From positions 29,144 through 93,143 of the forward strand of contig JAUSEN010000009.1 in NCBI GenBank assembly GCA_030650025.1: a DNA stretch of 64,000 nucleotides, written 5' to 3'. The translations under genes and the position numbers were made by a program. The stretch is from Candidatus Magasanikiibacteriota bacterium (lineage in GTDB: Bacteria; Patescibacteriota; Patescibacteriia; Magasanikbacterales; GWA2-37-8). Below the pieces are notes generated by a model that was not told the DNA's origin, did no database searches, and saw only the letters and a list, made by a program, of their open reading frames with translations. Of this stretch, positions 2,418 to 64,000 are shown piece after piece; within the stretch, counting starts at the first letter, position 1, and every line of letters starts with the position of its first letter.

Positions 2418-2560
2418 ATCGCCACGTTAGTACAACATAAATTTATGATTTCTATAGTAGCAGGGGAGAGGGGAGGGCGTCAATTTAAAAAACAAAAAAG
2501 CCGTAAGAATAAAAAAACCGTTTTTAACGGCTAAAAATATTTTAAATTTCTAGAGCCCGG

Positions 2561-2591
2561 CCCCGGCGCGCTAATCGCTAGCGCGCCGGGG
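2561..2591. terminator. GC-rich hairpin terminator of the high-GC island A gene
   Basis: ccccggcgcgcta-atcgc-tagcgcgccgggg: a 13-bp perfect stem immediately downstream of the minus-strand gene that ends at 2606. Confidence 0.6.
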
Positions 2592-2605
2592 CTTAGGCAG
2601 TGAGC

Positions 2606-3121
2606 TCACTCGAGGTACTCCCTGATCTCGATCGTGGTGATCGAGGTTCTGGCGCGGAGTTTCTGCATGATGTCGTCTACGATCAGGTGGCCGTCACCCT
2701 CCCAGCTCGCCCGCCGCGCTGGCGTGAGGCTCTGCGTGTAGTCGGCCACCACCACGTCGTGCTCATCGTGGCCGGTGTAGCCGAGCCACGGGTCCGGGTC
2801 GCCCGGCGTGTCGCCGATCTCGCCCACGGCGCCATCGATGTCGAAGTGGACCTCGACTTCAGCCACCTCGGGCGATTCGGCCACGGCGTACCAGACGAAC
2901 AGGATGCCCTCCCCCCGGCGCTCCAGGATGCCGTAGCCGTGGGCGAAGGCGCGCGCGTAGCCCTGGCGCGTCGGGTGTTCGGCAGCGAAGGCCGCCTGGT
3001 GCTCCGCGATGAAGTGCCTCTGGTGGTAGGCGTAGTGGATCACCCCGGTGAGGAGGACGACCCCGGCGAGAGCCAGGACAGCGCCGCCTGCAAGCAGAAC
3101 CAGGAACCAGTTCTTTTTCAT
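2606..3121 (-). CDS. hypothetical membrane-anchored or secreted protein (high-GC island A)
   Basis: N-terminus MKKNWFLVLLAGGAVLALAGVVLL is signal- or anchor-like. SD gaggtaatcgATG is present. The gene is about 68% GC, against the low-GC surroundings. Confidence 0.45.
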   Translation of the reverse strand: MKKNWFLVLLAGGAVLALAGVVLLTGVIHYAYHQRHFIAEHQAAFAAEHPTRQGYARAFAHGYGILERRGEGILFVWYAVAESPEVAEVEVHFDIDGAVGEIGDTPGDPDPWLGYTGHDEHDVVVADYTQSLTPARRASWEGDGHLIVDDIMQKLRARTSITTIEIREYLE

Positions 3122-3321
3122 CGATTACCTCGAGTTGAGGGAGCAGCTTTGGCCGATCTAGGCGGCCACAGCTACTCCGGTTGTTGGTGTTCAGGTCCGC
3201 CAGCCATCAATTTAGGGCCAGCGCTGAAACGCTTCATCTTAACAAGTTTTAGGCGAGCCGTCAAGGTGGCGCGGGCGGGTAAAGCTAATTATACATATTG
3301 ATAACGACCACCTGGGGATTG

Positions 3322-12969: not shown

Positions 12970-13105
12970 AGACGTAGAATTATTTAAAAGCTACCAGTAA
13001 TATACTGCTCGAACTGATTTTTGTAAAGCAGATGTATGGTACCAATGCAGCGGCTAGTGTAGAAATAAAAATATCCCGCCACAGCAGGATATTTTAAGAT
13101 TTTTT

Positions 13106-13167
13106 CAAGACCACCCTCGATATACCGGCAAGAACTTGTAAGTATATCGAGTGTGAAGGTGGTCTTG
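13106..13167. repeat. long imperfect hairpin at the left junction of high-GC island B
   Basis: caagaccaccctcgatatac ... gtatatcgagtgtgaaggtggtcttg. Confidence 0.5.
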
Positions 13168-13191
13168 TGTGTGTAGAACCGTTCGAGCGAA

Positions 13192-13222
13192 CCCTCCCTC
13201 CAGCGACACGCCGGAGGGAGGG
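13192..13222. terminator. GC-rich hairpin terminator of the island B gene
   Basis: ccctccctcc-agcgacacgcc-ggagggaggg: a 10-bp stem downstream of the minus-strand gene that ends at 13245. Confidence 0.6.
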
Positions 13223-13244
13223 TTGTACACCCAGCCGCGGCGCG

Positions 13245-13793
13245 TTACTCGTCGTCCAACTTCATCCGGGTATGAATCCGCGGCGGCGGGGCTCGCGGCG
13301 GATCCGGGGGCGGGGGCGGCGGTCGCGGAGCGACCAGGCGGGGTTCACGCTGGATCGCTTCCGCGATCGCGGCTTCGATCGCCGCGGCGAGCCCCGGCTC
13401 GCGGGGCGGCAGTCCACCGATGTCGAAGCCCAGGCTTCCCCAGCTCACGGTAGCGTCCGCGCGGAACTTGCCAGCGGATACAACCTGCCCCTGTCTGCGG
13501 TAGTCCACTTCCACCTCCTCCGCGCACTTCTCCGGGTCGCTGGCGAGTAGGGGGTGCTTTGTGTAGATGGCCACCAACCGCGCGTGCCGGTCAACGTTGC
13601 CGACCAGCAGGGTGCCGTCCGAGAGCAAGACGAGTTTCCCTACGTACTTGTGATGGTCGTACAGCCTCTCGAAAGTCGGAACTTCTGCTTCCGGGTAATT
13701 CTGGTGGCAGAATGCCACCACGTTCGTCACGTTCGTGGTGCGCATTGGTCGCCTCCTGCCCACCACCCTACGCAATTTTTTATGGGTTGTCAA
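13245..13793 (-). CDS. hypothetical protein with Pro-rich C-terminus (high-GC island B)
   Basis: 182 aa at about 66% GC with a strong SD (aggaggcgaccaATG). C-terminus reads PRPPPPPPDPPRAPPP. No recognisable family. Confidence 0.4.
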   Translation of the reverse strand: MTTHKKLRRVVGRRRPMRTTNVTNVVAFCHQNYPEAEVPTFERLYDHHKYVGKLVLLSDGTLLVGNVDRHARLVAIYTKHPLLASDPEKCAEEVEVDYRRQGQVVSAGKFRADATVSWGSLGFDIGGLPPREPGLAAAIEAAIAEAIQREPRLVAPRPPPPPPDPPRAPPPRIHTRMKLDDE

Positions 13794-13840
13794 ATAAAAA
13801 CAACAAAAAATATTTTCCGTAAAATTTTGGGTTAAACGAA

Positions 13841-13872
13841 GTAGGGAACCCCGCCAAGGCGGGGTTCCCTAC
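13841..13872. repeat. REP family-2 hairpin (GTAGGGA...TCCCTAC); also serves as the recA terminator.
   Basis: gtagggaaccccgccaaggcggggttccctac. Preceded by the conserved leader aaaaaatattttccgtaaaatttt that also sits at 18604-18630. Confidence 0.65.
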
Positions 13873-13894: not shown

Positions 13895-14980
13895 TTATTC
13901 TGTTCCAGCTAGCGCTGTGTCGGGTGAGGCGGCTGAAGCCGTTTCCGGTGGTTCGCCCCTGTCCACTACTTCCAGCACTTGATCACGGATTTTTTTCATT
14001 AGTTTGGGGTTGGCTTTGAGGTAAGCTTTAGCGGTTTCGCGCCCCACTCCTAATTTTTCTTCGCCCCCGTCTTTGGTGGGGTACAAATAACTATTTCCTT
14101 TTTTGTCCACTATTTTATAAAGCACTGCCGTGTCGAGCGTGTCGCCCGCGAGCGAAATGCCTTCGTTATACATGATGTCGAATTCGGTGGTGCGGAAGGG
14201 CGCGGCGACTTTATTTTTCACGATTTTAACCTTAACGCGGTTGCCGATAATTTTATCGCCCTGTTTAATTTGCGCCGCGCGGCGAATTTCAATGCGGATA
14301 GACGAATAAAATTTTAAAGCCATGCCTCCGGTGGTAGTTTCTGGGTTGCCAAACACAATGCCAATTTTCATGCGTGTTTGGTTGATAAAGATGACGATGG
14401 TTCGGGATTTACTCACAATGCCGGTGAGCTTACGCAGAGCCTGGCTCATAAGGCGAGCTTGTAACCCCATGTGCGAATCGCCCATGTCGCCATCAATTTC
14501 TTTCTGGGGTACGAGCGCCGCCACCGAATCAATTACTACCACATCCACGGCATTGCTTCGAACCAGTGTTTCCACGATTTCGAGCGCCTGTTCGCCCGTG
14601 TCTGGTTGCGAAATTAATAATTCATCAACTTTAACGCCGATTTTTTTGGCATAATCCGGGTCGAGGGCATGCTCGGCGTCCACAAACGCCGCCAGCCCGC
14701 CGAGCTTCTGTACCTCGGCTACAATGTGCTGGGCGAGCGTGGTTTTGCCGCTCGATTCTGGCCCGTAAATTTCAATGACGCGGCCGCGTGGCACGCCCTT
14801 GACGCCAAGCGCGATATCTAAGGATAGACAGCCGGTTGTTACCGCGTCTACCTGCATGGTTTTGGAGTCGCCAAATTTCATAATGGCGCCCGCGCCGAAT
14901 TTGGTTCTAATTTGTTCAATCGCCGTGGCGGCGGCCTTAGACTTTTCTGAATCCTCGTTTTTAATATTTGTTTTAGACAT
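13895..14980 (-). CDS. recA: recombinase RecA
   Basis: Walker [11 protein letters not shown]1/L2 regions and overall collinearity with RecA. Length is 361 aa. Confidence 0.95.
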
Positions 14981-15743: not shown

Positions 15744-18188
15744 TTATTCAATCGCTTCAGGGTCATCGTTTGTTTTCTCGGCGCTATTTTCTTCAGCTGT
15801 TTTTTCTTCTAAACTCTCTTCATCGCTTGCGGTGGTAATTTTTTCTGGAGAGTCAAACACACTACCCCCCGCGTCCATGGTCTGTTTGTTTGGCTCTAAC
15901 TCTGGCTCCGCCGGTGGGCGAGAGTAACCCGCTGGCCTCGTCTGCCCCGGCGAATAAAAAGAATCACTCGGCGCGAAAACTTCACGCGGTTTCGCGCCTT
16001 CTCCTGGCCCTACTATACCATTCTCTTCGAGCTCGTCAAGGAGGCGCGCCGCTCGGGCATACCCCACTTTCATGCGCCGCTGGAGGAGCGAGGCCGAGGC
16101 CTTGCCCGATTCAATCACCAGGCGTTTGGCTTCTTCAAATAAAGGATCTTGGTCGTCGCTTGGCCCTCCAAACAGGCTCATCGTGCCGCTTACGCCGCCT
16201 TTAGATACAATCGAATCATCATATCGCGCTGGCTCATCACCCTGGAGGTAAGTAACCAGCGATTTCATTTCTTCTTCGGATACATAGGCTCCTTGCAAGC
16301 GTTTGGGTTTAGAGAGTTCCGCGGTCAAGAGGAGCATATCGCCGCGGCCAAGGAGTTTTTCCGCGCCCGGGCAGTCCAAAATAGTGCGCGAATCAATGAT
16401 GGACGCGACTGAAAACGCCAAACGCGCGGGGATATTGGCTTTCATGAGGCCGGTAATAACTTCAACGCTCGGCCGCTGGGTAGCCACAATTAGGTGGATG
16501 CCAACCGCGCGCGCCATTTGGGCAATGCGGATAATCCCGGCTTCCACTTCGGCCGGGGCCGTGGTCATTAAATCGGCCAGCTCGTCAATCACAAAAACAA
16601 TGTAAGGCAGTTTATCCGCGGTCGCTTTGTTATAAGACTGGATATCGCGTTTGCCCGCGGCCGAAAGTAAATCAAAGCGCCGATCCATTTCGCCAATCAC
16701 CCACTTTAAAGCATTGACTGTTTTGGCCGCGTCCGTGATCACGGGGGTTAGCAAATGGGGAATGCCGTTATAAAGAGTCAGTTCCACGCGCTTTGGGTCA
16801 ACCATTATTAGGCGTAATGTTTCGGGCGTATTTTGAAATAACAAACTCAAAATTACCGTATTAATACAAACTGTTTTACCGCTTCCCGTGGCACCCGCGA
16901 TTAGCATGTGCGGCATTTTGAGTAAATCTCCAAACCATACTTTGCCTGCCACATCTTTGCCGAGAGCCACCATCATGGAATGCTCGCGATTTTTATATTC
17001 CGGGCTTTCCAATAATTCGCGCAGTGTTACCATCGCCACTTTCTGATTAGGCACTTCAATGCCAACGAGGGCCTTACCCGGTATTGGCGCTTCAATGCGG
17101 ATCGGATGAGCCGCTAACGCCAAAGCCAAATCGTTTGACAGGCCAGTGATCCGGGCCAGTTTTACGCCCTTATCTGGTTTCAGCGAATATTGCGTTACCG
17201 TGGGGCCAACGCGCACTTCCCCCATCTCTACCTCAATGCCAAAATTATGCAGCATGTCTTTGATTACCGCGGCATTGCTTTTAATGTCCCCGCTGGTAGG
17301 TTTGCTTTTAGAAATATGCAGTAAGTCCAAACTCGGCAAATTTTTATAAACAATTTTTTCTTTAATGATTTCCATTTTATTTTTTTCTTCACCTTCTTCC
17401 GCGTCCCCATTTTTACCATTCTCGCGTTGCCCGGCCATTGCTTTATGCTTAAATATTCGCCGCTCTTCTTCCGCGCCGTCATCCTCGGCTTCTTCCTCGT
17501 CGGTTTTGGTGGTCGCTCTCTCTCGCTTGTTTCCTAACTCTTGGTTGGCCGTGTCGCCAATTTCATATTCGCCTTTAATTTTAAATCTAATTGGCTGGTC
17601 GGATTTTTCAAATTTACTAAACAACGCTACCACTCGCGCGCCCATCCAGCCAATGCTCGCCAAGAATTTTTTATGAATGTCCACGATATTAGCGAGCGAA
17701 GTATTAAAGAGCAAAATAATGCCAACCAGCATGAGCCCGATTAAAATCAAGAGTCCTCCCCAGTACCCGAGGTACATTAAAGCCGGCCAAGAGAGAACGA
17801 GGCCGGCGAGCCCGCCGCCAAAACCTTGGAGCGCGATCGAAACGAGCGCCTCGATCGGTTTTTGTATATGCACCAGCCCATTGAACGACAGTAAAAAAAT
17901 TACCGCTCCGATTAGGTGGGTGGGGCGGTATTTATATTCCGCGTCCTTAATTACAAAATAGATTAAAATCAAAAGCACTAATGGGAAGGCGTAGCGCACT
18001 TGGCCAAAAGTTATCGCGAGCAAAGAGTCCACAAATTTTCCGGCTACGCCCGCGCTGTCAAAAAAACTCAAAATAGATAGGCCGGCCACCACTAATAATA
18101 AAACCGCTAAAACGCCCCGATTAATGGGTGGGTTAACCTCGATTTTTTCGTACCACCTAACGCGGCTACGGCGGCGCGGTCTGTACAT
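15744..18188 (-). CDS. ftsK: DNA translocase FtsK/SpoIIIE
   Basis: N-terminal TM domain, a linker, an ATPase with Walker A GATGSGKTVCIN, and a C-terminal gamma/winged-helix domain. Length is 814 aa. Confidence 0.9.
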   Translation of the reverse strand: MYRPRRRSRVRWYEKIEVNPPINRGVLAVLLLVVAGLSILSFFDSAGVAGKFVDSLLAITFGQVRYAFPLVLLILIYFVIKDAEYKYRPTHLIGAVIFLLSFNGLVHIQKPIEALVSIALQGFGGGLAGLVLSWPALMYLGYWGGLLILIGLMLVGIILLFNTSLANIVDIHKKFLASIGWMGARVVALFSKFEKSDQPIRFKIKGEYEIGDTANQELGNKRERATTKTDEEEAEDDGAEEERRIFKHKAMAGQRENGKNGDAEEGEEKNKMEIIKEKIVYKNLPSLDLLHISKSKPTSGDIKSNAAVIKDMLHNFGIEVEMGEVRVGPTVTQYSLKPDKGVKLARITGLSNDLALALAAHPIRIEAPIPGKALVGIEVPNQKVAMVTLRELLESPEYKNREHSMMVALGKDVAGKVWFGDLLKMPHMLIAGATGSGKTVCINTVILSLLFQNTPETLRLIMVDPKRVELTLYNGIPHLLTPVITDAAKTVNALKWVIGEMDRRFDLLSAAGKRDIQSYNKATADKLPYIVFVIDELADLMTTAPAEVEAGIIRIAQMARAVGIHLIVATQRPSVEVITGLMKANIPARLAFSVASIIDSRTILDCPGAEKLLGRGDMLLLTAELSKPKRLQGAYVSEEEMKSLVTYLQGDEPARYDDSIVSKGGVSGTMSLFGGPSDDQDPLFEEAKRLVIESGKASASLLQRRMKVGYARAARLLDELEENGIVGPGEGAKPREVFAPSDSFYSPGQTRPAGYSRPPAEPELEPNKQTMDAGGSVFDSPEKITTASDEESLEEKTAEENSAEKTNDDPEAIE

Positions 18189-18348
18189 AAATAATTATAA
18201 GCATTCCGCCAAAGGCGGATTGTTAACTGACACAAAATTTTTCAAATTTTGGTCGTTAACAACAAAATTCGTGCCTTTATGCACTCGTCTCCCGTCTTTA
18301 TTATAGCACAAAAAAGCCCTCGAGCGTAGTCGAGAGGCTTGTGCACAG

Positions 18349-18510
18349 ACTCTGGCCAATTTACTGCGAGAAGAGCTGCATGTCTTAGCTAACGGACCGA
18401 ATCTAGAAAACGCTGCTAGAACACCGGAGTGTTCAAAGCAAGAGAGAGACTGTTTTTTAGCGTCCTGCCCGGTTGAGACATCAACTCTTTCGCAGTAAAC
18501 TGGCCACAGC
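18349..18510 (-). ncRNA. Candidate structured RNA or 5' leader upstream of ftsK.
   Basis: A 19/20-bp long-range helix (ggccaatttactgcgagaag pairs with cttTcgcagtaaActggcc) encloses about 120 nt with internal hairpins. It lies between the predicted ftsK promoter and the ftsK start. No family was identified. Confidence 0.3.
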
Positions 18511-18570
18511 AATTTATTTTTTTAGTTTTAGAGATGATTTAGATGTTATGAGAGTGGTTGGCAGTCTTTA

Positions 18571-18599
18571 ATTGTAGCGGAATTTAATAGTCTGTCAAG
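18571..18599 (-). promoter_or_regulatory. Sigma70-like promoter (TTGACA-17-TACAAT) reading toward ftsK.
   Basis: The reverse complement reads cacTTGACAgactattaaattccgcTACAAT. Confidence 0.5.
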
Positions 18600-18630
18600 T
18601 GTGACCAAAAAATATTGTCCGTAAAATTTT

Positions 18631-18659
18631 GTAGGGACAGGGCATTGCCCTGTCCCTAC
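18631..18659. repeat. REP family-2 hairpin
   Basis: gtagggacagggcattgccctgtccctac, with the same leader ...aatattgtccgtaaaattttg as the 13841 copy. Confidence 0.65.
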
Positions 18660-18679
18660 TTGGTTTCTCTAATTTTTTA

Positions 18680-18741
18680 GAAGTTCGCCACCCGGCTGTT
18701 TCCAAAAATTTTAGAAATAGCAGGGTAGTGGGGCGAACTTC
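18680..18741. repeat. imperfect long hairpin at the left junction of high-GC island C
   Basis: gaagttcgccacc...ggtagtggggcgaacttc. Confidence 0.45.
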
Positions 18742-18760
18742 AGCCTCTCTACCTTTCTTC

Positions 18761-19003
18761 TCACCGGCGGGCGTAGCGCCGCCTCTCCTGGTTGCAGCGC
18801 CAAGCCAGGAACCCTGCCAGGAGGCAGAGGCGCACGATGGTGAGCCAGGGGAGAGCGCTGGCCCGGGCGCTGATGAAGGCGAAGCTCATCGCCTGGCAAA
18901 CGCCCCTGACTTCTTTCCGCTTCACGATTTTCAGACCGCGCCGCAGCGCGGCCAGGTGGCAGCCCAGCGAGCAGGCTGCGATTTCGATCGTGTATCTTTT
19001 CAT
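18761..19003 (-). CDS. small (80 aa) membrane protein, high-GC island C
   Basis: MKRYTIEIAACSLGCHLAAL...LPWLTIVRLCLLAGFLAWRC with SD gaggaggctgccATG. The tool ORF runs to 19195, but the GC switch and SD favour the ATG at 19003. Confidence 0.35.
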   Translation of the reverse strand: MKRYTIEIAACSLGCHLAALRRGLKIVKRKEVRGVCQAMSFAFISARASALPWLTIVRLCLLAGFLAWRCNQERRRYARR

Positions 19004-19106
19004 GGCAGCCTCCTCAAGTTGGGGTTGACTGTTATCTAAACATGTTTTAAAAAAATAGGCAAATAAAAACCCTGTACCAGAACGGTACAGGGTTAATATA
19101 TTTTTG

Positions 19107-19172
19107 AAGTTCGTCGTCACCTTCTGGGGATAATTTAATATTTTCCCAAGAAGGTGATGCGACGACGAACTT
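19107..19172. repeat. imperfect long hairpin inside island C, between its two genes
   Basis: gaagttcgtcgtcaccttct ... agaaggtgatgcgacgacgaacttg. Confidence 0.45.
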
Positions 19173-19225
19173 GATACTGTTCGCTGTCGCACCACTTTGT
19201 GCGTGGTGCGTGTTGTCCCTTGGTG

Positions 19226-19837
19226 CTAGACGCGCGGGTGGCGCTCTCCGCGGCCGAGCAGGTTCTCGAAGAGCCCGTGCAGTTCTGCCGGGAGGTCGGC
19301 GAGCGCCTTTTCGAACGTGTCGGCCGGCTCGTGGCGGTCGATCTCGATCCTGATCCGGACCGAGAGCCCAGAGCGCGTGAAGCGCTCCTTGAGGTCGGGG
19401 CGGCTGTCGAACGCGGCCTTGAGCACCGCGCCCAGCTCCTGGGCGAGCGCCTCGGGCTCGTTGCTCTGGCTGGTCCCCGAGCCGTTGCCGCCCGCCGCCT
19501 GGTCGGTGGTGCCGCCCGTCCTGGCGGAGTTGAGCGGGTTGCCGAACATCTCGAAGAGCGAAGCGATCCCGGGCGGCATCTCGCGCGGCTGCGCGGCGAG
19601 GCCGTCGAGCTTACCTTCGTTCTGGAGACGGAGAACCTCGGCCGCGAGCGCCTTGCCCTCGGCTTTGGTGCCTCTCATGCCGAGCAGGTCGCCGACAGCG
19701 GTGTCGAGCTCGGCCCGGCTACCGAACACCACCTTCTTGCCGTCGGCGCGGTGGACCATGCCGTGCGCGCCGCAGTTGGTGCACATCTTGATCCTGGGCT
19801 TGGGCTGGTCACCCTGCCCCGTCTTCTTTCTGGTCAT
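19226..19837 (-). CDS. hypothetical protein with an N-terminal Cys cluster (high-GC island C)
   Basis: 203 aa with MCTNCGAHGMVH near the N-terminus and SD ggaaggaaggtggccaATG. Third-position GC exceeds first-position GC on this strand; the antisense ORFs show the opposite. Confidence 0.4.
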   Translation of the reverse strand: MTRKKTGQGDQPKPRIKMCTNCGAHGMVHRADGKKVVFGSRAELDTAVGDLLGMRGTKAEGKALAAEVLRLQNEGKLDGLAAQPREMPPGIASLFEMFGNPLNSARTGGTTDQAAGGNGSGTSQSNEPEALAQELGAVLKAAFDSRPDLKERFTRSGLSVRIRIEIDRHEPADTFEKALADLPAELHGLFENLLGRGERHPRV

Positions 19838-20092
19838 TGGCCACCTTCCTTCCGCTCCCTCGTGATTGAGGGGAAGAAAGTCGACAACTGTTATCGCCTA
19901 TCTTCCCATCAATACGAATCAGAAAATGACTAGGAAGTGTAGCAAAAAAAGAGATATGTGTAAAGGCTCAAAATTGAACGCTGACCTTACCCTGTGGATA
20001 ATTTTTATATAAAAAGTCGGCCAAACTATTTTTTTATCTAACTTTAGCCAAAAAATTACTGCTCTTGACAACCACTTATCCGCCAGTTCCAT

Positions 20093-38591: not shown

Positions 38592-39083
38592 CGAATCCTC
38601 GGCATTGACCCCGGTTTTGGCCGCCTTGGCTACGGCGTGATTGAACAAAAGAAATCCGGCCAAGATTGGCAGGCTCTTACTTACGGCTGTATTTCCACCA
38701 ACCCCAAAGCCACGTTCGTGGAGCGTCTTAAAGATATCCACGAAGAGCTGGTAGATTTAATTAAAGAATATCAGCCCACCCGCGTGGCCGTGGAACAAAT
38801 TTTTTATTTCAAAAACGCCAAGACGGTTATTGACGTGGCGCAGGCGCGCGGAGTAGTAATTCTGACGGCTGTGGAAGCCGGCCTCCCGGTAGACGAATTC
38901 ACGCCCCTCCAAGTTAAACAAGCCATCACCGGCTATGGCCGAGCCGAAAAAGGCCAGATGCAAAAAATGGTGGGAGTAATTTTAAAAATTAAAGAACCAA
39001 TTAAATCCGACGACGCGGCCGATGCCTTGGCCGTGGCATTGACGGCTGGGCAAACTTTATGGCTCAAAAAATTCTTGAAATAA
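38589..39083 (+). CDS. ruvC: Holliday junction resolvase RuvC
   Basis: MRILGIDPGFGRLGYGV matches the RuvC N-terminus with its catalytic Asp. The ATG at 38589 right after the palindrome is preferred over 38571. Confidence 0.85.
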   Translation: MRILGIDPGFGRLGYGVIEQKKSGQDWQALTYGCISTNPKATFVERLKDIHEELVDLIKEYQPTRVAVEQIFYFKNAKTVIDVAQARGVVILTAVEAGLPVDEFTPLQVKQAITGYGRAEKGQMQKMVGVILKIKEPIKSDDAADALAVALTAGQTLWLKKFLK

Positions 39084-39601
39084 ACCCTAAAAAATACCCG
39101 TTTGTTTTAACCGTGCCTAACATTAGGAGCGGCCACAATGTGGGTGCTATGTTTAGGACGGCCGACGGCGCGGGCGTAGATAAAATTTATCTCTGTGGCT
39201 ATAGCCCGCGCCCGCCGCACCATCAAGTTGACAAAGTATCGCTCGGCGCCGAAAAATCCGTGCCGTGGGTAGGGGCAAGGTATGCCTTGCCCCTACTTAA
39301 GAAACTCAAAATTGCGGGTTACCACCTGGTTGCCTTGGAGCAAACCCCAAATAGTGTTAGTATATATAGGTGGAGGCCTGCCCGACTGAATGGCAGTCGT
39401 TCGGGCGGGCCACAGTTTCCACTCGCGCTTATTGTCGGCAACGAGAAGACTGGCGTTCCCCCGCCAATTTTAAAACTTTGTGACACGGTTGTGCATTTGC
39501 CCATGCGTGGCGCCAAAAATAGTTTAAATGTCAGTGTCGCCGCCGGTATTGCTCTGTATTATATTTCCGCAAAATTAATCCACGGGCATTCCCACGCCTA
39601 G
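39059..39601 (+). CDS. SpoU/TrmH-family RNA 2'-O-methyltransferase
   Basis: SPOUT motifs GNEKTGVP and SLNVSVAAGIALY. A GC-rich in-frame palindromic insert at about 39380-39425 encodes RPARLNGSRSGGP. Confidence 0.65.
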   Translation: MAQKILEINPKKYPFVLTVPNIRSGHNVGAMFRTADGAGVDKIYLCGYSPRPPHHQVDKVSLGAEKSVPWVGARYALPLLKKLKIAGYHLVALEQTPNSVSIYRWRPARLNGSRSGGPQFPLALIVGNEKTGVPPPILKLCDTVVHLPMRGAKNSLNVSVAAGIALYYISAKLIHGHSHA

Positions 39602-42043: not shown

Positions 42044-42128
42044 ACGTAGAGACGTTGCACTGCAACGTCTCTTTGCACTGCAACGTCTCTTTGCACTGCA
42101 ACGTCTCTTTGCACTGCAACGTCTCTTT
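42044..42128. repeat. REP family-1 array: four tandem 18-nt units forming GAGACGTTGCA-c-TGCAACGTCTC hairpins.
   Basis: cacgtagagacgttgcactgcaacgtctctttgcactgcaacgtctcttt..., immediately 5' of the RAYT-1 start. Confidence 0.8.
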
Positions 42129-42135
42129 AAAAATT

Positions 42136-42780
42136 ATGATAGAAAAATTTAAAAATAAATATCGAATACCATCGGCACGTTTGCCTGATTGGGATTACAG
42201 CAATGCCGGTTTATATTTTGTAACAATTTGCACAAAAAATAGATTTTGTTATTTTGGCGATATTATTAAAAATAAGATGTGGTTATCTAAAATGGGTAAA
42301 ATTGCACAGCAATATTGGTCGGAAATTCCCAATCATTTTTCACATGTCTATCTGGATGAATATGTAATAATGCCTAATCATATTCACGGTATTATCAGAA
42401 TCACGGAAAACAATGTAAATCATAATCACGTAGAGACGTTGCACTGCAACGTCTCTTTGCACTGCAACGTCTCCGAAACAACATCGCCAAAAACGCCAGA
42501 GACGTTGCACTGCAACGTCTCTACGCAAACGATGATGCAGAAATCGCTAATGTCAAAAATTTCGCCTCGGACTGGTTCGCTAGGCACCATTATTCGTTCG
42601 TTTAAATCAATTTTTACCAGAACAATCAATCAAGACCCTACATTGCAATATTTTGGTTGGCAAGAACGCTACTACGAATCGATCATCCGCGATCAAAAAT
42701 CTCTGGAACACATTCGCGGATACATTCGTGATAATCCAAAGAATTGGGAAAAAGATGAATTATTCCCGCATATTAAATAA
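42136..42780 (+). CDS. IS200/IS605-family Y1 (HuH) transposase, REP-associated (RAYT-1)
   Basis: DWDYSNAGLYFVTICTKNR and HuH YVIMPNHIHGII, with YY in ...FGWQERYYESIIRD... at the presumptive catalytic Tyr. Start refined to MIEKF...; the first 27 tool-ORF codons are REP translation. Confidence 0.7.
   Translation: MIEKFKNKYRIPSARLPDWDYSNAGLYFVTICTKNRFCYFGDIIKNKMWLSKMGKIAQQYWSEIPNHFSHVYLDEYVIMPNHIHGIIRITENNVNHNHVETLHCNVSLHCNVSETTSPKTPETLHCNVSTQTMMQKSLMSKISPRTGSLGTIIRSFKSIFTRTINQDPTLQYFGWQERYYESIIRDQKSLEHIRGYIRDNPKNWEKDELFPHIK
42428..42523 (+). repeat. REP family-1 copies (2.5 units) inserted in-frame inside RAYT-1.
   Basis: cgtagagacgttgcactgcaacgtctctttgcactgcaacgtctcc ... cagagacgttgcactgcaacgtctcta, encoding ETLHCNVSLHCNVS...ETLHCNVST. 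Confidence 0.75.
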
Positions 42781-50979: not shown

Positions 50980-51729
50980 ATGGGATCGAGGAATCTGAAG
51001 AGTGGAAGCCTGGTTCTCCAGGAGGACGTCAGGAAGGACTTCCGCGGGTCGGAAGGCATGCTGGAGCTCCTCATGACCGTTCTCACCGGTCTCCTGACGG
51101 GAACCGTGATCATCCGCTACATGGACCGGGTGAAGGGTGGCCCCGGACATCAGAGCCAGGTGCGAGCCGTCCGGTTCGATAACGTTCGCCACCAGATCAT
51201 CCTGACGGCCCAGCCGGGCGACAACAAGACCCACTGGCGGCTGTCACTCACTCTGGCGCGAACAACCGACTTAAGCAAGGTGTACGCCGCGCTCGTCGCA
51301 AGGCTCGGTGTTACTCCGGCAGAAGTAGTCGGTAACAACGGCTCACCGGGCGACCAAGCCGCTCTGCGCGTCGAGCTGGCGCGGCTCGAACAGCTTCATG
51401 GCGAGCAGAAGGCCGAGCATGATCGTCATCAGGCGGCCGAAGCCGAGCGCGCAGTTCAGCGTGAGGGGCTCGTAAATGATCGCAGGGCGCTCGAAGAGCT
51501 CATCGTCGAGGTCGACGAGGAGAGTCGGCGCGCCACTGCCGCCCGGGCCGCGGCCGAAGAAGCCCTCGAACAGACCGAGCTTGAGCTCGACGAGGTCAGG
51601 GACAAGCTCGAGGCCATCAGGAAGAAGGCCGATGCCCTCGCTGCCGCGCGTCAGCTCCTGGCCGAGGCCAACCTCGACCTCGCTGACCCGGGCGTGCTCG
51701 CGGCCCTGCGCGGAGAGCCGGCCAAGTAG
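50980..51729 (+). CDS. hypothetical TM plus coiled-coil protein (high-GC island D)
   Basis: 249 aa with TM LLMTVLTGLLTGTVII and a long Ala/Glu/Arg-rich coiled coil. The gene is about 68% GC, and the composition switch falls within about 15 nt of the start codon. Confidence 0.4.
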   Translation: MGSRNLKSGSLVLQEDVRKDFRGSEGMLELLMTVLTGLLTGTVIIRYMDRVKGGPGHQSQVRAVRFDNVRHQIILTAQPGDNKTHWRLSLTLARTTDLSKVYAALVARLGVTPAEVVGNNGSPGDQAALRVELARLEQLHGEQKAEHDRHQAAEAERAVQREGLVNDRRALEELIVEVDEESRRATAARAAAEEALEQTELELDEVRDKLEAIRKKADALAAARQLLAEANLDLADPGVLAALRGEPAK

Positions 51730-51765
51730 GGTTCCGCCACCCCAACGTACTTCCATTTCCAACCC

Positions 51766-51790
51766 CTGCCGGTCCCGAGGCGACCGGCAG
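51766..51790 (+). terminator. GC-rich hairpin terminator of the island D gene
   Basis: ctgccggtc-ccgaggc-gaccggcag. Confidence 0.55.
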
Positions 51791-52104
51791 TACTCACAAA
51801 ACATCACTATTCAAGTGGTGTTTTTTGATGCCACAGATTTTGAAATACAAATAATTGACAAAATTTAGCATTTTTAGTACTCTTAAATTAAGACGTTTTG
51901 CCCATTATCGACGGGCAGAGCTCGTCCGCCGCGGCGGGCGGGATCGCGTTAAGAGCAGAAATCCTGCGACCATCAGTCGTTGGAGAGTAGACCTCTTCGG
52001 GAATGCCCGTTACAGCTCAAAATTAAGCGAAAGCACAAGATGGTACCGTCCAGTCATTCGACCGGACTCTTGGCACGAATATTTTCGTGTTTTTTTATTG
52101 AAAA

Positions 52105-60308: not shown

Positions 60309-60341
60309 GTAGGGACCCCGACGTTACGTCGGGGTCCCTAC
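60309..60341. repeat. REP family-2 hairpin 5' of RAYT-2
   Basis: gtagggaccccgacgttacgtcggggtccctac. Confidence 0.65.
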
Positions 60342-60392: not shown

Positions 60393-60977
60393 ATGCCAGT
60401 TCGGCCAGCTCGTAAATTGAATCGTTGGCACAAATGGGATTATAGTAATTTTGGGTTCTATTTTGTAACAATATGCACGCAAGGTCGCCAGCAGTATTTT
60501 GGTGAAATCAGAAACGGTTTAAAGATTTTAAACAAATGCGGGAAAATTGTCGAAAATTTTTTGGGAGAAATCGAAGGCCATTTTAAAAATGTATATCTGG
60601 ATGAATTTGTGGTGATGCCAAACCACGTGCATGCGATAATTTTGGTTGATAATCAGGTGAATGGAAAAAGAACACAAACAATTGTAGGGAACGTATTCGC
60701 GCAAACGCGCGTAGGGACAGGGCAGTGCCCTGTCCCTACAAGGCGAAATAGCGCTAGATATGGGTTGTTATCTAAAATAATAAATGGTTTAAAAAACGTC
60801 GTCACAAAAGAGATCAGAAAACAATTTCGTTATAATGAATTCGGCTGGCAGCGGTCATTTCACGATCACATCATTCGCACTCCCACAGAATTAAACCGTG
60901 TTCGGCAATATATTGCGGCTAATCCAGAGAATTGGGAAGAGGACAGAAATAACCCAAAAAATTTTAAAAAATTATGA
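60393..60977 (+). CDS. IS200/IS605-family Y1 transposase homologue, REP-associated (RAYT-2), possibly catalytically degenerate.
   Basis: HKWDYSNFGFYFVTICTQGR and HuH FVVMPNHVHAII. The presumptive catalytic YY of RAYT-1 is F-H here (FGWQRSFHDHIIRT). Overlaps ruvA by 4 nt. Confidence 0.65.
   Translation: MPVRPARKLNRWHKWDYSNFGFYFVTICTQGRQQYFGEIRNGLKILNKCGKIVENFLGEIEGHFKNVYLDEFVVMPNHVHAIILVDNQVNGKRTQTIVGNVFAQTRVGTGQCPVPTRRNSARYGLLSKIINGLKNVVTKEIRKQFRYNEFGWQRSFHDHIIRTPTELNRVRQYIAANPENWEEDRNNPKNFKKL
60711..60739. repeat. REP family-2 hairpin inserted in-frame inside RAYT-2 (encodes RVGTGQCPVPT).
   Basis: gtagggacagggcagtgccctgtccctac, a 1-nt variant of the 18631 copy. A partial gtagggaac...gcgcaaacgcgc sits just upstream. 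Confidence 0.7.
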
Positions 60978-61549
60978 TCTCTCAAATTATTGGCAAAGTT
61001 ATCAGCAATAATGGATCAGATGTAGTTTTGTCCACCGCGGGTGGGGTCGGGTATAAAATTGCCGTCAGCCCTAAGGCAATCGAATTATGTTTAGTAGGTA
61101 AAGATGTATCCCTAGAAACATATTTGGTCGTGCGCGAAGATGCTCTTGACCTGTTTGGTTTTGCCAATAACTCCGAACGAGAATTATTTAAAAATTGTTT
61201 ATCGGTTTCGGGTATCGGGCCCAAGAGCGCTTTGAATATTTTAAAACTGGGAAGTGTGGAGGAAATTACGCTCGCGATCGCGCGCGGTGATATTGGTTAT
61301 CTTACCAAAGTCAGCGGCATTGGCAAAAAAACCGCCGAGCGCTTAGTGGTGGAACTCCGTGGTAAAGCGGCCAAGGGTTTGAGCGAAGAAGATTTAGTAA
61401 AACCAGCTGGAGTTTTGGGAGATGTGGTAGAAGCTTTAATGACGCTTGGCTACTCGGCCGAAGTGGCGCGCGATGTTGCTAAGAGTCTGAAGCAAGAAGG
61501 CAAGACGAGCGAACAGTTACTTCGCGAAGCGCTGAAGATGATGAAGTAG
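60974..61549 (+). CDS. ruvA: Holliday junction branch-migration protein RuvA
   Basis: OB domain, two HhH motifs (GIGPKSA and GIGKKTA), and the C-terminal domain III. Confidence 0.9.
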   Translation: MISQIIGKVISNNGSDVVLSTAGGVGYKIAVSPKAIELCLVGKDVSLETYLVVREDALDLFGFANNSERELFKNCLSVSGIGPKSALNILKLGSVEEITLAIARGDIGYLTKVSGIGKKTAERLVVELRGKAAKGLSEEDLVKPAGVLGDVVEALMTLGYSAEVARDVAKSLKQEGKTSEQLLREALKMMK

Positions 61550-61585
61550 AAAAATAATTGCGTTGATAGTATTAAAAAGTAGTGC

Positions 61586-61632
61586 GCGGCCGTCCTAATA
61601 AACATCTGGTGTGATGTCTGTCAGGACGGCCG
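61586..61632. terminator. GC-rich hairpin terminator of the island E gene
   Basis: gcggccgtcctaa...tcaggacggccg. Confidence 0.5.
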
Positions 61633-61656
61633 TTGTGGTTTTGCCGGTGAGCTCTC

Positions 61657-62112
61657 CTAGGCATGCTGTGCCAGCAGGTTTTCGAACGCCCGGGCCGACT
61701 CGGCCATGGCTTCGTCCTGCCGGTCCTGCCGATCCGCTACTTCTGCGGCGACCAGGGTCGCGAGCGCGAGCGCGTCGCTCGGCAAGATCTTCTCGCCAAG
61801 GTGCCGGCAGAGGATGCGCGCGAGCATCAGGCCTTGGTCAGTCTCGGGCGTGGCGGCCGAGACGCGCACGAGCCCATTTGCCAGCCGCGTGAGGATCACA
61901 GCCTTGATGTGCTCTCCGCTTCCGAGGCCGCGCTCCCGCGTGTACGCCGCGATAGCCGCGAGGAGCACCTTGGCCATCTTCGGGACGAGGTGCTCGAGGT
62001 GGGCGAGTTCGGTAGGCAGGGGAGAGATCTGCCCCGTAGCGCCAACCGCCATCGCTCCGAGTTCGAGAATGGTCCACGCCATCCTCTCTTTCACTTGCGG
62101 AACAGTGGTCAT
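61657..62112 (-). CDS. hypothetical protein (high-GC island E)
   Basis: 151 aa, about 66% GC, with SD aaaggagcggccATG. All-helical and Ala/Leu-rich. Confidence 0.35.
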   Translation of the reverse strand: MTTVPQVKERMAWTILELGAMAVGATGQISPLPTELAHLEHLVPKMAKVLLAAIAAYTRERGLGSGEHIKAVILTRLANGLVRVSAATPETDQGLMLARILCRHLGEKILPSDALALATLVAAEVADRQDRQDEAMAESARAFENLLAQHA

Positions 62113-62201
62113 GGCCGCTCCTTTCTTCTATCGAAGGTGGTTTTGCCCGGCCGCCACAGAGGCCAAAAAGCCACTCTGGCAAGTGGGCAAAAGTTTTAAC
62201 G

Positions 62202-63338: not shown

Positions 63339-63371
63339 CACCACTCACCGCGCTTCGCGCGGTGAGTGGTG
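63339..63371 (-). terminator. GC-rich perfect hairpin terminator after upp
   Basis: caccactcaccgcgc-ttc-gcgcggtgagtggtg. Confidence 0.55.
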
Positions 63372-63382
63372 GCTGGTGGCTC

Positions 63383-64000
63383 TCAGCCGCTCCGGATGAC
63401 GGCATCGGAGGGCCCGTTGAGCTTGTTTCCCATGTCGCCGGCGCCCGGCCAGATATAGTCGTACGCCGTGAGCCCCCCGTCAAGCGCGCCCGTAAAGAGG
63501 TGCGCGTTGGGGATGGCGTTCAAGAACCGCTCGGCGCCCTCGGGCGCCGCGATCAGGCTGAGCGCCACGTGCCAGCATGCCGTTCCCGGCAAGCTGGCGT
63601 AGTGCTCTACGGCCCTAAGCAGCGAGCCGCCGGTTGCGAGCATCGGGTCCGGGTAGACCACGATCGCACCGTTGACGGTACTCCCCGTCTTGCTTCCTTG
63701 GATTTCCACTCCGTTGACGTGGCCGGTCGCGTCGGTCGTCCGGTTCATGGTGAGGATGTCCATGCGCGCGTTCTCGAACCCGAGCGCCGTCAGCGCATCG
63801 AGCACGACATCCGAGGGGAGGAGTCCGCCGCGCGCGATCGCCGTCACCACCACGCTCGTCTGGGTGTTCGGCACCAGGCCGCGCCAAACCCCTCTCTCGC
63901 CCAACTCGGTCTGGAGCGGGGTGGGCACGCTGGCCTCACGCAGCAGGAACAGCTGGTTGATCATCTCCATCGTGAGGAGGTGGTAGAGCTCGCGCACCCA
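63383..64000 (-). CDS. upp: uracil phosphoribosyltransferase (high-GC island F); N-terminus at or beyond the window edge.
   Basis: PRPP loop DPMLATGGS, AAPEG, and a C-terminal YIWPGAGDMGNKL. About 68% GC. Confidence 0.8.
   Translation of the reverse strand, partial: WVRELYHLLTMEMINQLFLLREASVPTPLQTELGERGVWRGLVPNTQTSVVVTAIARGGLLPSDVVLDALTALGFENARMDILTMNRTTDATGHVNGVEIQGSKTGSTVNGAIVVYPDPMLATGGSLLRAVEHYASLPGTACWHVALSLIAAPEGAERFLNAIPNAHLFTGALDGGLTAYDYIWPGAGDMGNKLNGPSDAVIRSG

Follow-up and report, generated by a model that had tools for sequence, protein, structure and literature searches.

The window analyzed here, a 64-kb stretch of a Candidatus Magasanikbacteria MAG, carries five short hairpins of one REP family among genes that include recA, ftsK, a NIF3-like gene, an RNA methyltransferase gene and two RAYT genes, RAYT-1 and RAYT-2. 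A structured ncRNA with its own promoter lies upstream of ftsK, and a short AT-rich segment, hereafter the leader, stands next to two of the hairpins. RAYT-2, RecA and the methyltransferase each match a protein of a Candidatus Magasanikbacteria MAG with 100% identity. The positions of these features, counted from the first nucleotide of the window, are collected in Table 1.

Table 1. Position and strand of the features described in the 64-kb window.
Feature	Position	Strand	Description
REP copy 1	13841..13872	.	Double-foot GTAG REP, GTAGGGAAC...GTTCCCTAC subtype; 15-bp perfect stem, -30 kcal/mol
REP copy 2	18631..18659	.	GTAGGGACAGGGCA-N-TGCCCTGTCCCTAC subtype
REP copy 3	60309..60341	.	5' flank of the RAYT-2 REPtron
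REP copy 4	60711..60739	.	In frame in the RAYT-2 linker, in the HuH-Tyr interval; encodes VGTGQCPVPT
REP copy 5	39269..39296	.	Foot variant GTAGGGG...CCCCTAC; in frame in the methyltransferase gene; encodes VGARYALPL
Leader copy 1	13804..13829	+	26 nt, AT-rich, CAAAAAATATTTTCCGTAAAATTTTG; 11 nt from hairpin 1
Leader copy 2	18606..18631	+	26 nt, 25/26 identical to leader copy 1; abuts hairpin 2 with a 1-nt overlap
Candidate weak promoter near copy 1	13765..13793	-	TTGACA-17-TAGGGT, toward the island-B ORF
Predicted sigma-70-type promoter of the ncRNA upstream of ftsK	18571..18598	-	TTGACA-16-TACAAT; 11/12 in the consensus scan
Conserved structured ncRNA	18305..18563	-	Long hairpin plus intrinsic terminator (18336-18317), between the promoter and ftsK
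RAYT-2 (TnpA-REP, subclass-2.4-like)	60393..60977	+	Y1_Tnp; motifs PNHVH (HuH), GWQ and YIAANP; 194 aa
RAYT-1 REPtron (second Y1_Tnp gene)	42046..42780	+	ATG at 42139; own REP family-1, GTAGAGACGTTGCACTGCAACGTCTCT

REP hairpins

A search for the pattern GTAGGGA-N(10-25)-TCCCTAC returned exactly four matches in the 64-kb window and none in 100 shuffles (0 expected by chance), recovering REP copies 1 to 4 at the coordinates where a sequence-only reading of this DNA had placed them. The gene context given in that reading for copy 1 (after recA), copy 3 (5' of RAYT-2) and copy 4 (inside RAYT-2) also agrees with the gene calls. A fifth copy, GTAGGGGCAAGGTATGCCTTGCCCCTAC, which the reading did not include, was found by scanning the window for all perfect stems of 10 bp or more, and it carries a compensated A-to-G change in the foot. 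Copies 1 to 4 are perfect palindromes with stems of 14-16 bp, folding energies of -27 to -31 kcal/mol and z of about -7 to -8; taken together, the five copies measure 28-33 nt and have perfect stems of 12-16 bp, energies in the same range and z of -6.6 to -8. A GTAG start and a CTAC end, at the base of a GC-rich stem, are present in 5/5 copies. The inner stems fall into subtypes, with GTAGGGA(A)CCCCG common to copies 1 and 3, and with a loop base as the sole difference between copies 2 and 4.

Within the 64 kb, two copies are intergenic and far from the RAYT-2 gene, one is intragenic and two are located at the RAYT-2 gene. The recA gene occupies 13895-14980 on the minus strand (Pfam RecA, E=1.5e-133), its stop being 22 nt from copy 1, and copy 3 is located between the NIF3-like gene, whose stop is 28 nt away, and RAYT-2, whose start is 51 nt away. 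No inverted REP pair with a short spacer (the REPIN arrangement) occurs in the window, where every copy is a singleton. Directly before copy 4, at 60684-60710, there is a degenerate half-copy (GTAGGGAAC...) that encodes VGNVFAQTR.

Copy 5 lies within a SpoU/TrmH-type RNA methyltransferase gene (39059-39601), in which its peptide stands for the EYxKQTGRL of the homologs, so that nine residues are swapped and the length is unchanged. Since this length equals that of the homologs, insertion at copy 5 is not demonstrated. Further along the same gene, at about 39370-39405, a partly palindromic stretch rich in GC encodes an insertion of 11 residues (ARLNGSRSGGP), which none of the 11 aligned homologs has.

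Six relatives (recA 82-85% identical), compared over syntenic sequence of about 100 kb in all, have no such hairpins, which would fit a lineage-specific acquisition of the REP/RAYT system. Three further perfect palindromes that have no relation to the REPs were identified at or inside GC-rich islands of the window, at 2560-2592 (GCCCCGGCGCGC...), 19068-19094 (AACCCTGTACC...) and 63339-63371 (CACCACTCACCGCGC...), the second of them with the appearance of a bidirectional terminator.

RAYT genes

RAYT-2 scored 32.6 bits against Pfam Y1_Tnp, above the cutoff, and 58.8 bits against NCBIfam REP_Tyr_transpos, under the cutoff of 80. A profile of the RAYT-2 family matched the E. coli TnpA-REP structure 4ER8 (Ton-Hoang, 2012; Messing, 2012) with E=2e-6; phmmer with the single RAYT-2 sequence gave no match in PDB, and 4ER8 is thus reached by the family profile only. 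[quoted passage not shown] The linkers of the homologs are full of translated GTAG...CTAC palindromes, which appear as VETLHCNVST, VETRQCLVST, VGTGQCPVPT and VGNxxxRSLQ.

The hairpin of copies 2 and 4 was further detected at 24 loci in metagenome contigs, always as a single copy per locus. Eight of these 24 hairpins occupy the same linker site in RAYTs 46-52% identical to RAYT-2, and the remainder are intergenic; in the eight RAYTs the 29-nt hairpin is identical and the 45 nt on each side are at background identity. Around RAYT-2 itself, copy 3 is the only flanking REP and lies 5' of the gene; at the 3' edge the stop of RAYT-2 overlaps the start of ruvA, which is why no REP is found there. The proposed link between the REP family and the neighbouring RAYT is supported.

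RAYT-1 has a REP family of its own, family-1, which is found at the 5' edge of the gene and again inside it, in the equivalent linker. Family-1 is confined to the edge and interior of this gene (42046-42125 and 42430-42524). Behind it, its 3' half is repeated in tandem in units of 18 nt, which appear as HCNVSL repeats in the long ORF call. A similar half-hairpin slippage is present in a metagenomic RAYT (L024, QCPVPT three times), and a RAYT homolog from Candidatus Uhrbacteria (P0019) encodes VGTGQCPVPT twice, in the usual linker and in an insertion in the N-terminal half. At two loci (L021:1780-1808 and L030:5156-5184, in large contigs of 1.66 Mb and 395 kb) the hairpin is lengthened by TTAATTA / TAATTAA flanks into a longer palindrome.

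Terminators and promoters next to the hairpins

The hairpins had been read as elements that double as terminators, and this description may suit some of the copies. On the minus strand, the strand of recA, copy 1 has the tail TTCGTTTAAC (TTCGTTT), and on the plus strand, the strand of the NIF3-like gene, copy 3 has the tail TTGTTTTCAA (TTGTTTT); both pass the terminator scan, with U-tracts that are short and interrupted. A terminator role is plausible for these two copies from their position (22 and 28 nt after a stop) and their shape (a strong stem and a T-rich tail), and copy 1 plausibly takes the place of the ordinary A-stem-T terminator that the relatives have at the same spot after recA. 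Copies 4 and 5 are intragenic. The description is not supported for copy 2 after island C, for which termination had been claimed on the minus strand: its tail there, AAAATTTTAC, is not a U-tract, and the copy passes the terminator scan on the plus strand only, where no gene ends.

The sequence-only reading had also assigned to the element a -35 box for outward promoters at copies 1 and 2. The TTGACA next to copy 2 is a real-looking -35, as the reading supposed, but the promoter would drive the ncRNA, which has its own terminator, and not ftsK directly. In five syntenic relatives (L032, L033, L035, L036 and L037), TTGACA-17-TAAAAT/TACAAT is present at the same place, and these genomes have neither REP nor leader. 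Since the promoter is shared with relatives in which REP and leader are both missing, we regard this TTGACA as resident and not as imported by the element, and the claim that the element supplies the -35 is not supported. Judged from this comparison of sequences, the copy-2 promoter would be the ancestral promoter of the conserved ncRNA that precedes ftsK. At copy 1 the consensus scan gave no promoter call, because the -10 (TAGGGT) matches only 3/6, and the outward promoter claimed there was not upheld. The island-B ORF, with an ATG at 13745 and GGAGG just before it, is a plausible gene after the copy-1 hexamer.

The ncRNA folds with -95.4 kcal/mol (z -7.25), and covariation was observed at 21/38 predicted pairs across 6 genomes; in the relatives, the gene order is promoter, conserved RNA, its terminator and then ftsK. 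It measures about 200-260 nt in six Magasanikbacteria-like genomes, is located immediately upstream of ftsK (L032:5360-5570, L033:6500-6712, L035:3669-3892, L036:3663-3875 and L037:3360-3565 in the relatives), and displays a long closing stem, a conserved CUGCG...CGCAG and a conserved UCUCUC stretch. Rfam gave no match at the gathering threshold in the whole window and nothing credible at E up to 1 in 18100-19250, and ARAGORN predicted no tRNA or tmRNA. The ncRNA is possibly a divergent 6S-like RNA.

GC-rich islands and the rpoB-ftsK spacer

Six short GC-rich islands (60-74% GC) are present in this genome of roughly 45% GC, at about 2500-3300, 13100-13760, 18700-19900, 51000-52000, 61500-62200 and 63500-64000. 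Their ORFs have no Pfam matches, and the islands are mutually dissimilar; a search with the island-B protein returned a few small homologs, along with heterogeneous matches to large repeat proteins that look compositional. The rpoB-ftsK spacer measures 2.3 kb here versus 0.7-1.1 kb in L032 and L035-L037, that is, in four of the five measurable relatives, and is longer still in L033, where it holds three extra genes. The greater length of the spacer here than in four of five relatives suggests that this site is variable and that island C was inserted there.

The sole perfect DnaA box of the window (TTATCCACA, 19993-20001, minus strand) is located in the divergent rpoB/ftsK spacer, and perfect DnaA boxes were also identified in the same spacer of L032, L035, L036 and L037. 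Furthermore, gene orientation changes from minus to plus at about 20 kb, and the cumulative GC skew reaches its minimum, a broad one, in the region of about 20-30 kb. The rpoB/ftsK spacer may act as a replication origin or be under DnaA regulation.

AT-rich leader

The leader, CAAAAAATATT[T/G]TCCGTAAAATTTTG, is identical at 25/26 positions between its two sites, and no further match with up to 3 mismatches occurs in the 64-kb window (0 expected). It is made up of two AT palindromes, AAAATATTTT and AAAATTTT, with CCGT between them, and a TGTCAA hexamer is found further upstream of the core, at a distance of 10 nt at copy 1 and of 7 nt at copy 2. Local alignment of the flanks of copies 1 and 2 showed significant homology in a core of 25-26 nt alone (score 45; best of 300 shuffles, 27) and no continuation beyond the hairpins (score 14, against a null mean of 14.6). 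The two copies had been credited with a shared upstream segment of roughly 45 nt; the shared sequence is real but shorter, a 26-nt core plus a separate hexamer, since the alignment recovers the core only. On the minus strand, direct repeats of the order hairpin-leader-TTGACA bracket the block formed by the ncRNA, ftsK, a rodZ-like gene and recA.

The two hairpins that bear the leader are of different subtypes, copy 1 resembling copy 3 and copy 2 being near-identical to copy 4. Neither terminal inverted repeats nor target duplications were seen at the edges of the TGTCAA...hairpin stretch at either locus. The leader was absent beside all 24 metagenomic copies of the copy-2 hairpin, no composite of leader plus hairpin was found in the metagenome contigs, and the GTDB representative genomes contained seven unrelated single matches to the leader, none of them beside a GTAGGGA hairpin; these results apply to the two collections, neither of which includes the source genome.

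Other identities considered for the leader were discarded. A CodY-like box had 4 of 15 mismatches and belongs to the wrong phylum, and an IHF site was a poor match. An origin as the end of the GC-rich islands was rejected because the two loci have their islands on opposite sides of the unit, and because the islands have no mutual DNA or protein similarity. A leader-like CAAATTTTAC upstream of the orthologous promoter in L032 was too short and AT-rich, and it is absent in L033 and L035-L037.

Discussion

Our data make it highly probable that the hairpins are double-foot GTAG REPs of the RAYT-2 REPtron and that the AT-rich leader is a separate sequence. In this context, RAYT-2 would be a TnpA-REP tyrosine HuH enzyme of a subclass that embeds its own REP in frame in the linker that joins the HuH motif to the Tyr motif. 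If it acts like the TnpA-REP of E. coli, it would recognise the folded single-stranded hairpin through the GTAG foot and would maintain or spread the REP copies, and dispersed copies would persist at sites that tolerate a strong hairpin or benefit from it. Copies 4 and 5 would occupy variable protein loops, and at copies 1 and 3 the transcribed hairpin with its T-rich tail could terminate transcription or stabilise the upstream mRNA. An identical 29-nt hairpin has been kept across RAYT genes otherwise diverged to about 50% identity. Given this conservation at the nucleotide level, the in-gene REP could conceivably act as a cis-regulatory handle by which the enzyme senses its own gene.

The terminator-like placement and shape of copies 1 and 3 would also be expected if the hairpins were ordinary intrinsic terminators, alike by convergence and forming no repeat family. 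However, two copies lie inside ORFs, the relatives use unrelated A-stem-T terminators, 0 pattern matches are expected by chance, and the same 29-mer recurs in 24 metagenome contigs, including eight in which it occupies the shared linker site in a RAYT homolog. We give this explanation almost no credence, as the shuffle null, the metagenomic recurrence and the shared RAYT linker site effectively refute it. The leader calls for a separate explanation: it is not part of the REP but a separate sequence, placed upstream of the -35 hexamer at each of its two sites. Most probably it is a promoter-upstream (UP-element-like) segment that was duplicated locally and that two different REP variants now adjoin. 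It is possible that the direct repeats on the minus strand reflect this duplication, as bracketing repeats would fit a local (tandem) event. Otherwise, the leader may be a REP-associated accessory motif, comparable to those of E. coli BIMEs, or it may mark an insertion-target preference. The sequence-only reading had favored a composite, MITE-like unit, under which leader and hairpin transpose jointly as a MITE/BIME-like cassette that has a terminator at one end and an outward -35/UP element at the opposite end. E. coli BIMEs provide a general precedent, a REP adjoins the 25/26 identical leader at both sites, and the minus-strand order of hairpin, leader and TTGACA is shared by both. Such a unit is nevertheless difficult to reconcile with the remaining evidence: the leader is present at only 2/5 copies and missing from the other three; the inner stems of the two hairpins are entirely different, yet their leaders are 96% identical; the spacing varies both to the hairpin (11 vs 0 nt) and to TTGACA (10 vs 7 nt); terminal inverted repeats and target duplications were not seen; the 24 metagenomic hairpins have no leader, the composite scan gave 0 and the GTDB leader scan gave 7 unrelated single matches; and the -35/-10 pair at copy 2 is ancestral. 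We consider joint transposition improbable.

Somewhat less improbable, although still unlikely in our judgment, is that the leader is a protein-binding site (an operator, a nucleoid-protein site or a UP-type element) that recurs at several promoters, with REPs adjoining it by coincidence or because AT-rich spacers tolerate insertions. The TTGACA 7-10 nt from the leader at both sites and the two AT palindromes around CCGT speak in its favor, and the position of the leader relative to the -35 roughly fits the -57 to -44 zone of UP elements (Estrem/Gourse consensus). Against it, only two copies occur in 64 kb holding about 60 genes, the leader is not upstream of the orthologous ncRNA promoter in the relatives, the best match in 295 kb of compared loci has at least 3 mismatches and comes from unrelated organisms, and no candidate regulator is known. 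There is only a slim chance that the leader is a genuine accessory module, travelling with or attracting REPs and forming with the hairpin a portable insulator cassette (terminator, then UP/-35); if true, such a cassette would rewire transcription at gene boundaries, for example by switching on newly acquired genes of GC-rich islands. A locally duplicated promoter-upstream segment remains our preferred reading of the leader.

In brief, no new mechanism is revealed by this locus, and the proposed terminator-plus-promoter cassette was not borne out. For annotation, the value of these REPs is that they explain odd peptides in predicted proteins, such as VGTGQCPVPT, VETLHCNVS and VGARYALPL, and flag the places where a REP may stand in for a terminator.

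Comparison with known REP/RAYT systems

With MITEs and Correia-type elements, the locus shares the idea, put forward in the sequence-only reading, of a short repeat that provides a hairpin terminator and a -35. The elements differ, in that terminal inverted repeats and target duplications are absent here, the leader is inconstant and the -35 at copy 2 is resident.

The GTAG REP superfamily has been described near the 3' ends of upstream ORFs and as in-frame intragenic REPs, also in housekeeping genes (Di Nocera, De Gregorio and Rocco, 2013; BMC Genomics 14:522, PMC3733652). The present copies resemble these REPs in the GTAG tag, in their place within tandem gene pairs, close to where the upstream ORF ends, and in the in-frame REPs in housekeeping genes. 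Copy 5 is unlike the intragenic GTAG REPs, as it swaps nine residues at constant length and adds none.

The E. coli REP/BIME system and its TnpA-REP share with this locus GTAG-footed hairpins and a HuH/Tyr enzyme that is related at the profile level (E=2e-6). BIMEs of E. coli are REPs combined with other short conserved motifs, and they are the nearest precedent for a leader. A further likeness concerns REPs in 3' UTRs, for which a role as terminator or mRNA stabiliser is established in E. coli (bioRxiv 10.64898/2026.03.23.713779). In contrast, E. coli REPs are single-foot, with imperfect stems, and usually form inverted pairs (REPINs/BIMEs), whereas the copies described here are perfect symmetric singletons; moreover, the NCBIfam equivalog model for TnpA-REP is unreached here (58.8 bits vs the cutoff of 80).

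The closest match is subclass 2.4 of TnpA-Y1, which corresponds to group 4 of Bertels et al. (2017). This subclass has "double foot" REPs with 5' GT[AG]G and 3' C[TC]AC, REPs inserted in tnpA-REP with the reading frame kept, and the enzyme motifs NH[IFV]H / WQ / YIxNNP, and its named hosts are Cyanobacteria, Bacteroidetes and "various phyla" (Quentin et al., 2018; BMC Genomics 19:475, PMC6006769). The locus described here agrees with it in the GTAG/CTAC feet on a long perfect stem, in the REP beside the gene and the in-frame REP between the HuH and Tyr motifs, in the highly variable linker with short DNA repeats, and in the motifs NHVH, WQ and YIxxNP of a protein of about 194 aa. It departs from it in the missing 3'-side REP, in one deviation of the Tyr motif (YIAANP instead of YIxNNP) and in the host, a Candidatus Magasanikbacteria (Patescibacteria/CPR) MAG. 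Because the arrangement matches subclass 2.4 (Quentin et al., 2018), the identity of the REP family is settled and already known, and the novelty is the host lineage, not the kind of element. This extends the subclass-2.4 RAYT/REP system, together with its in-gene REP, to a small-genome lineage of Patescibacteria.
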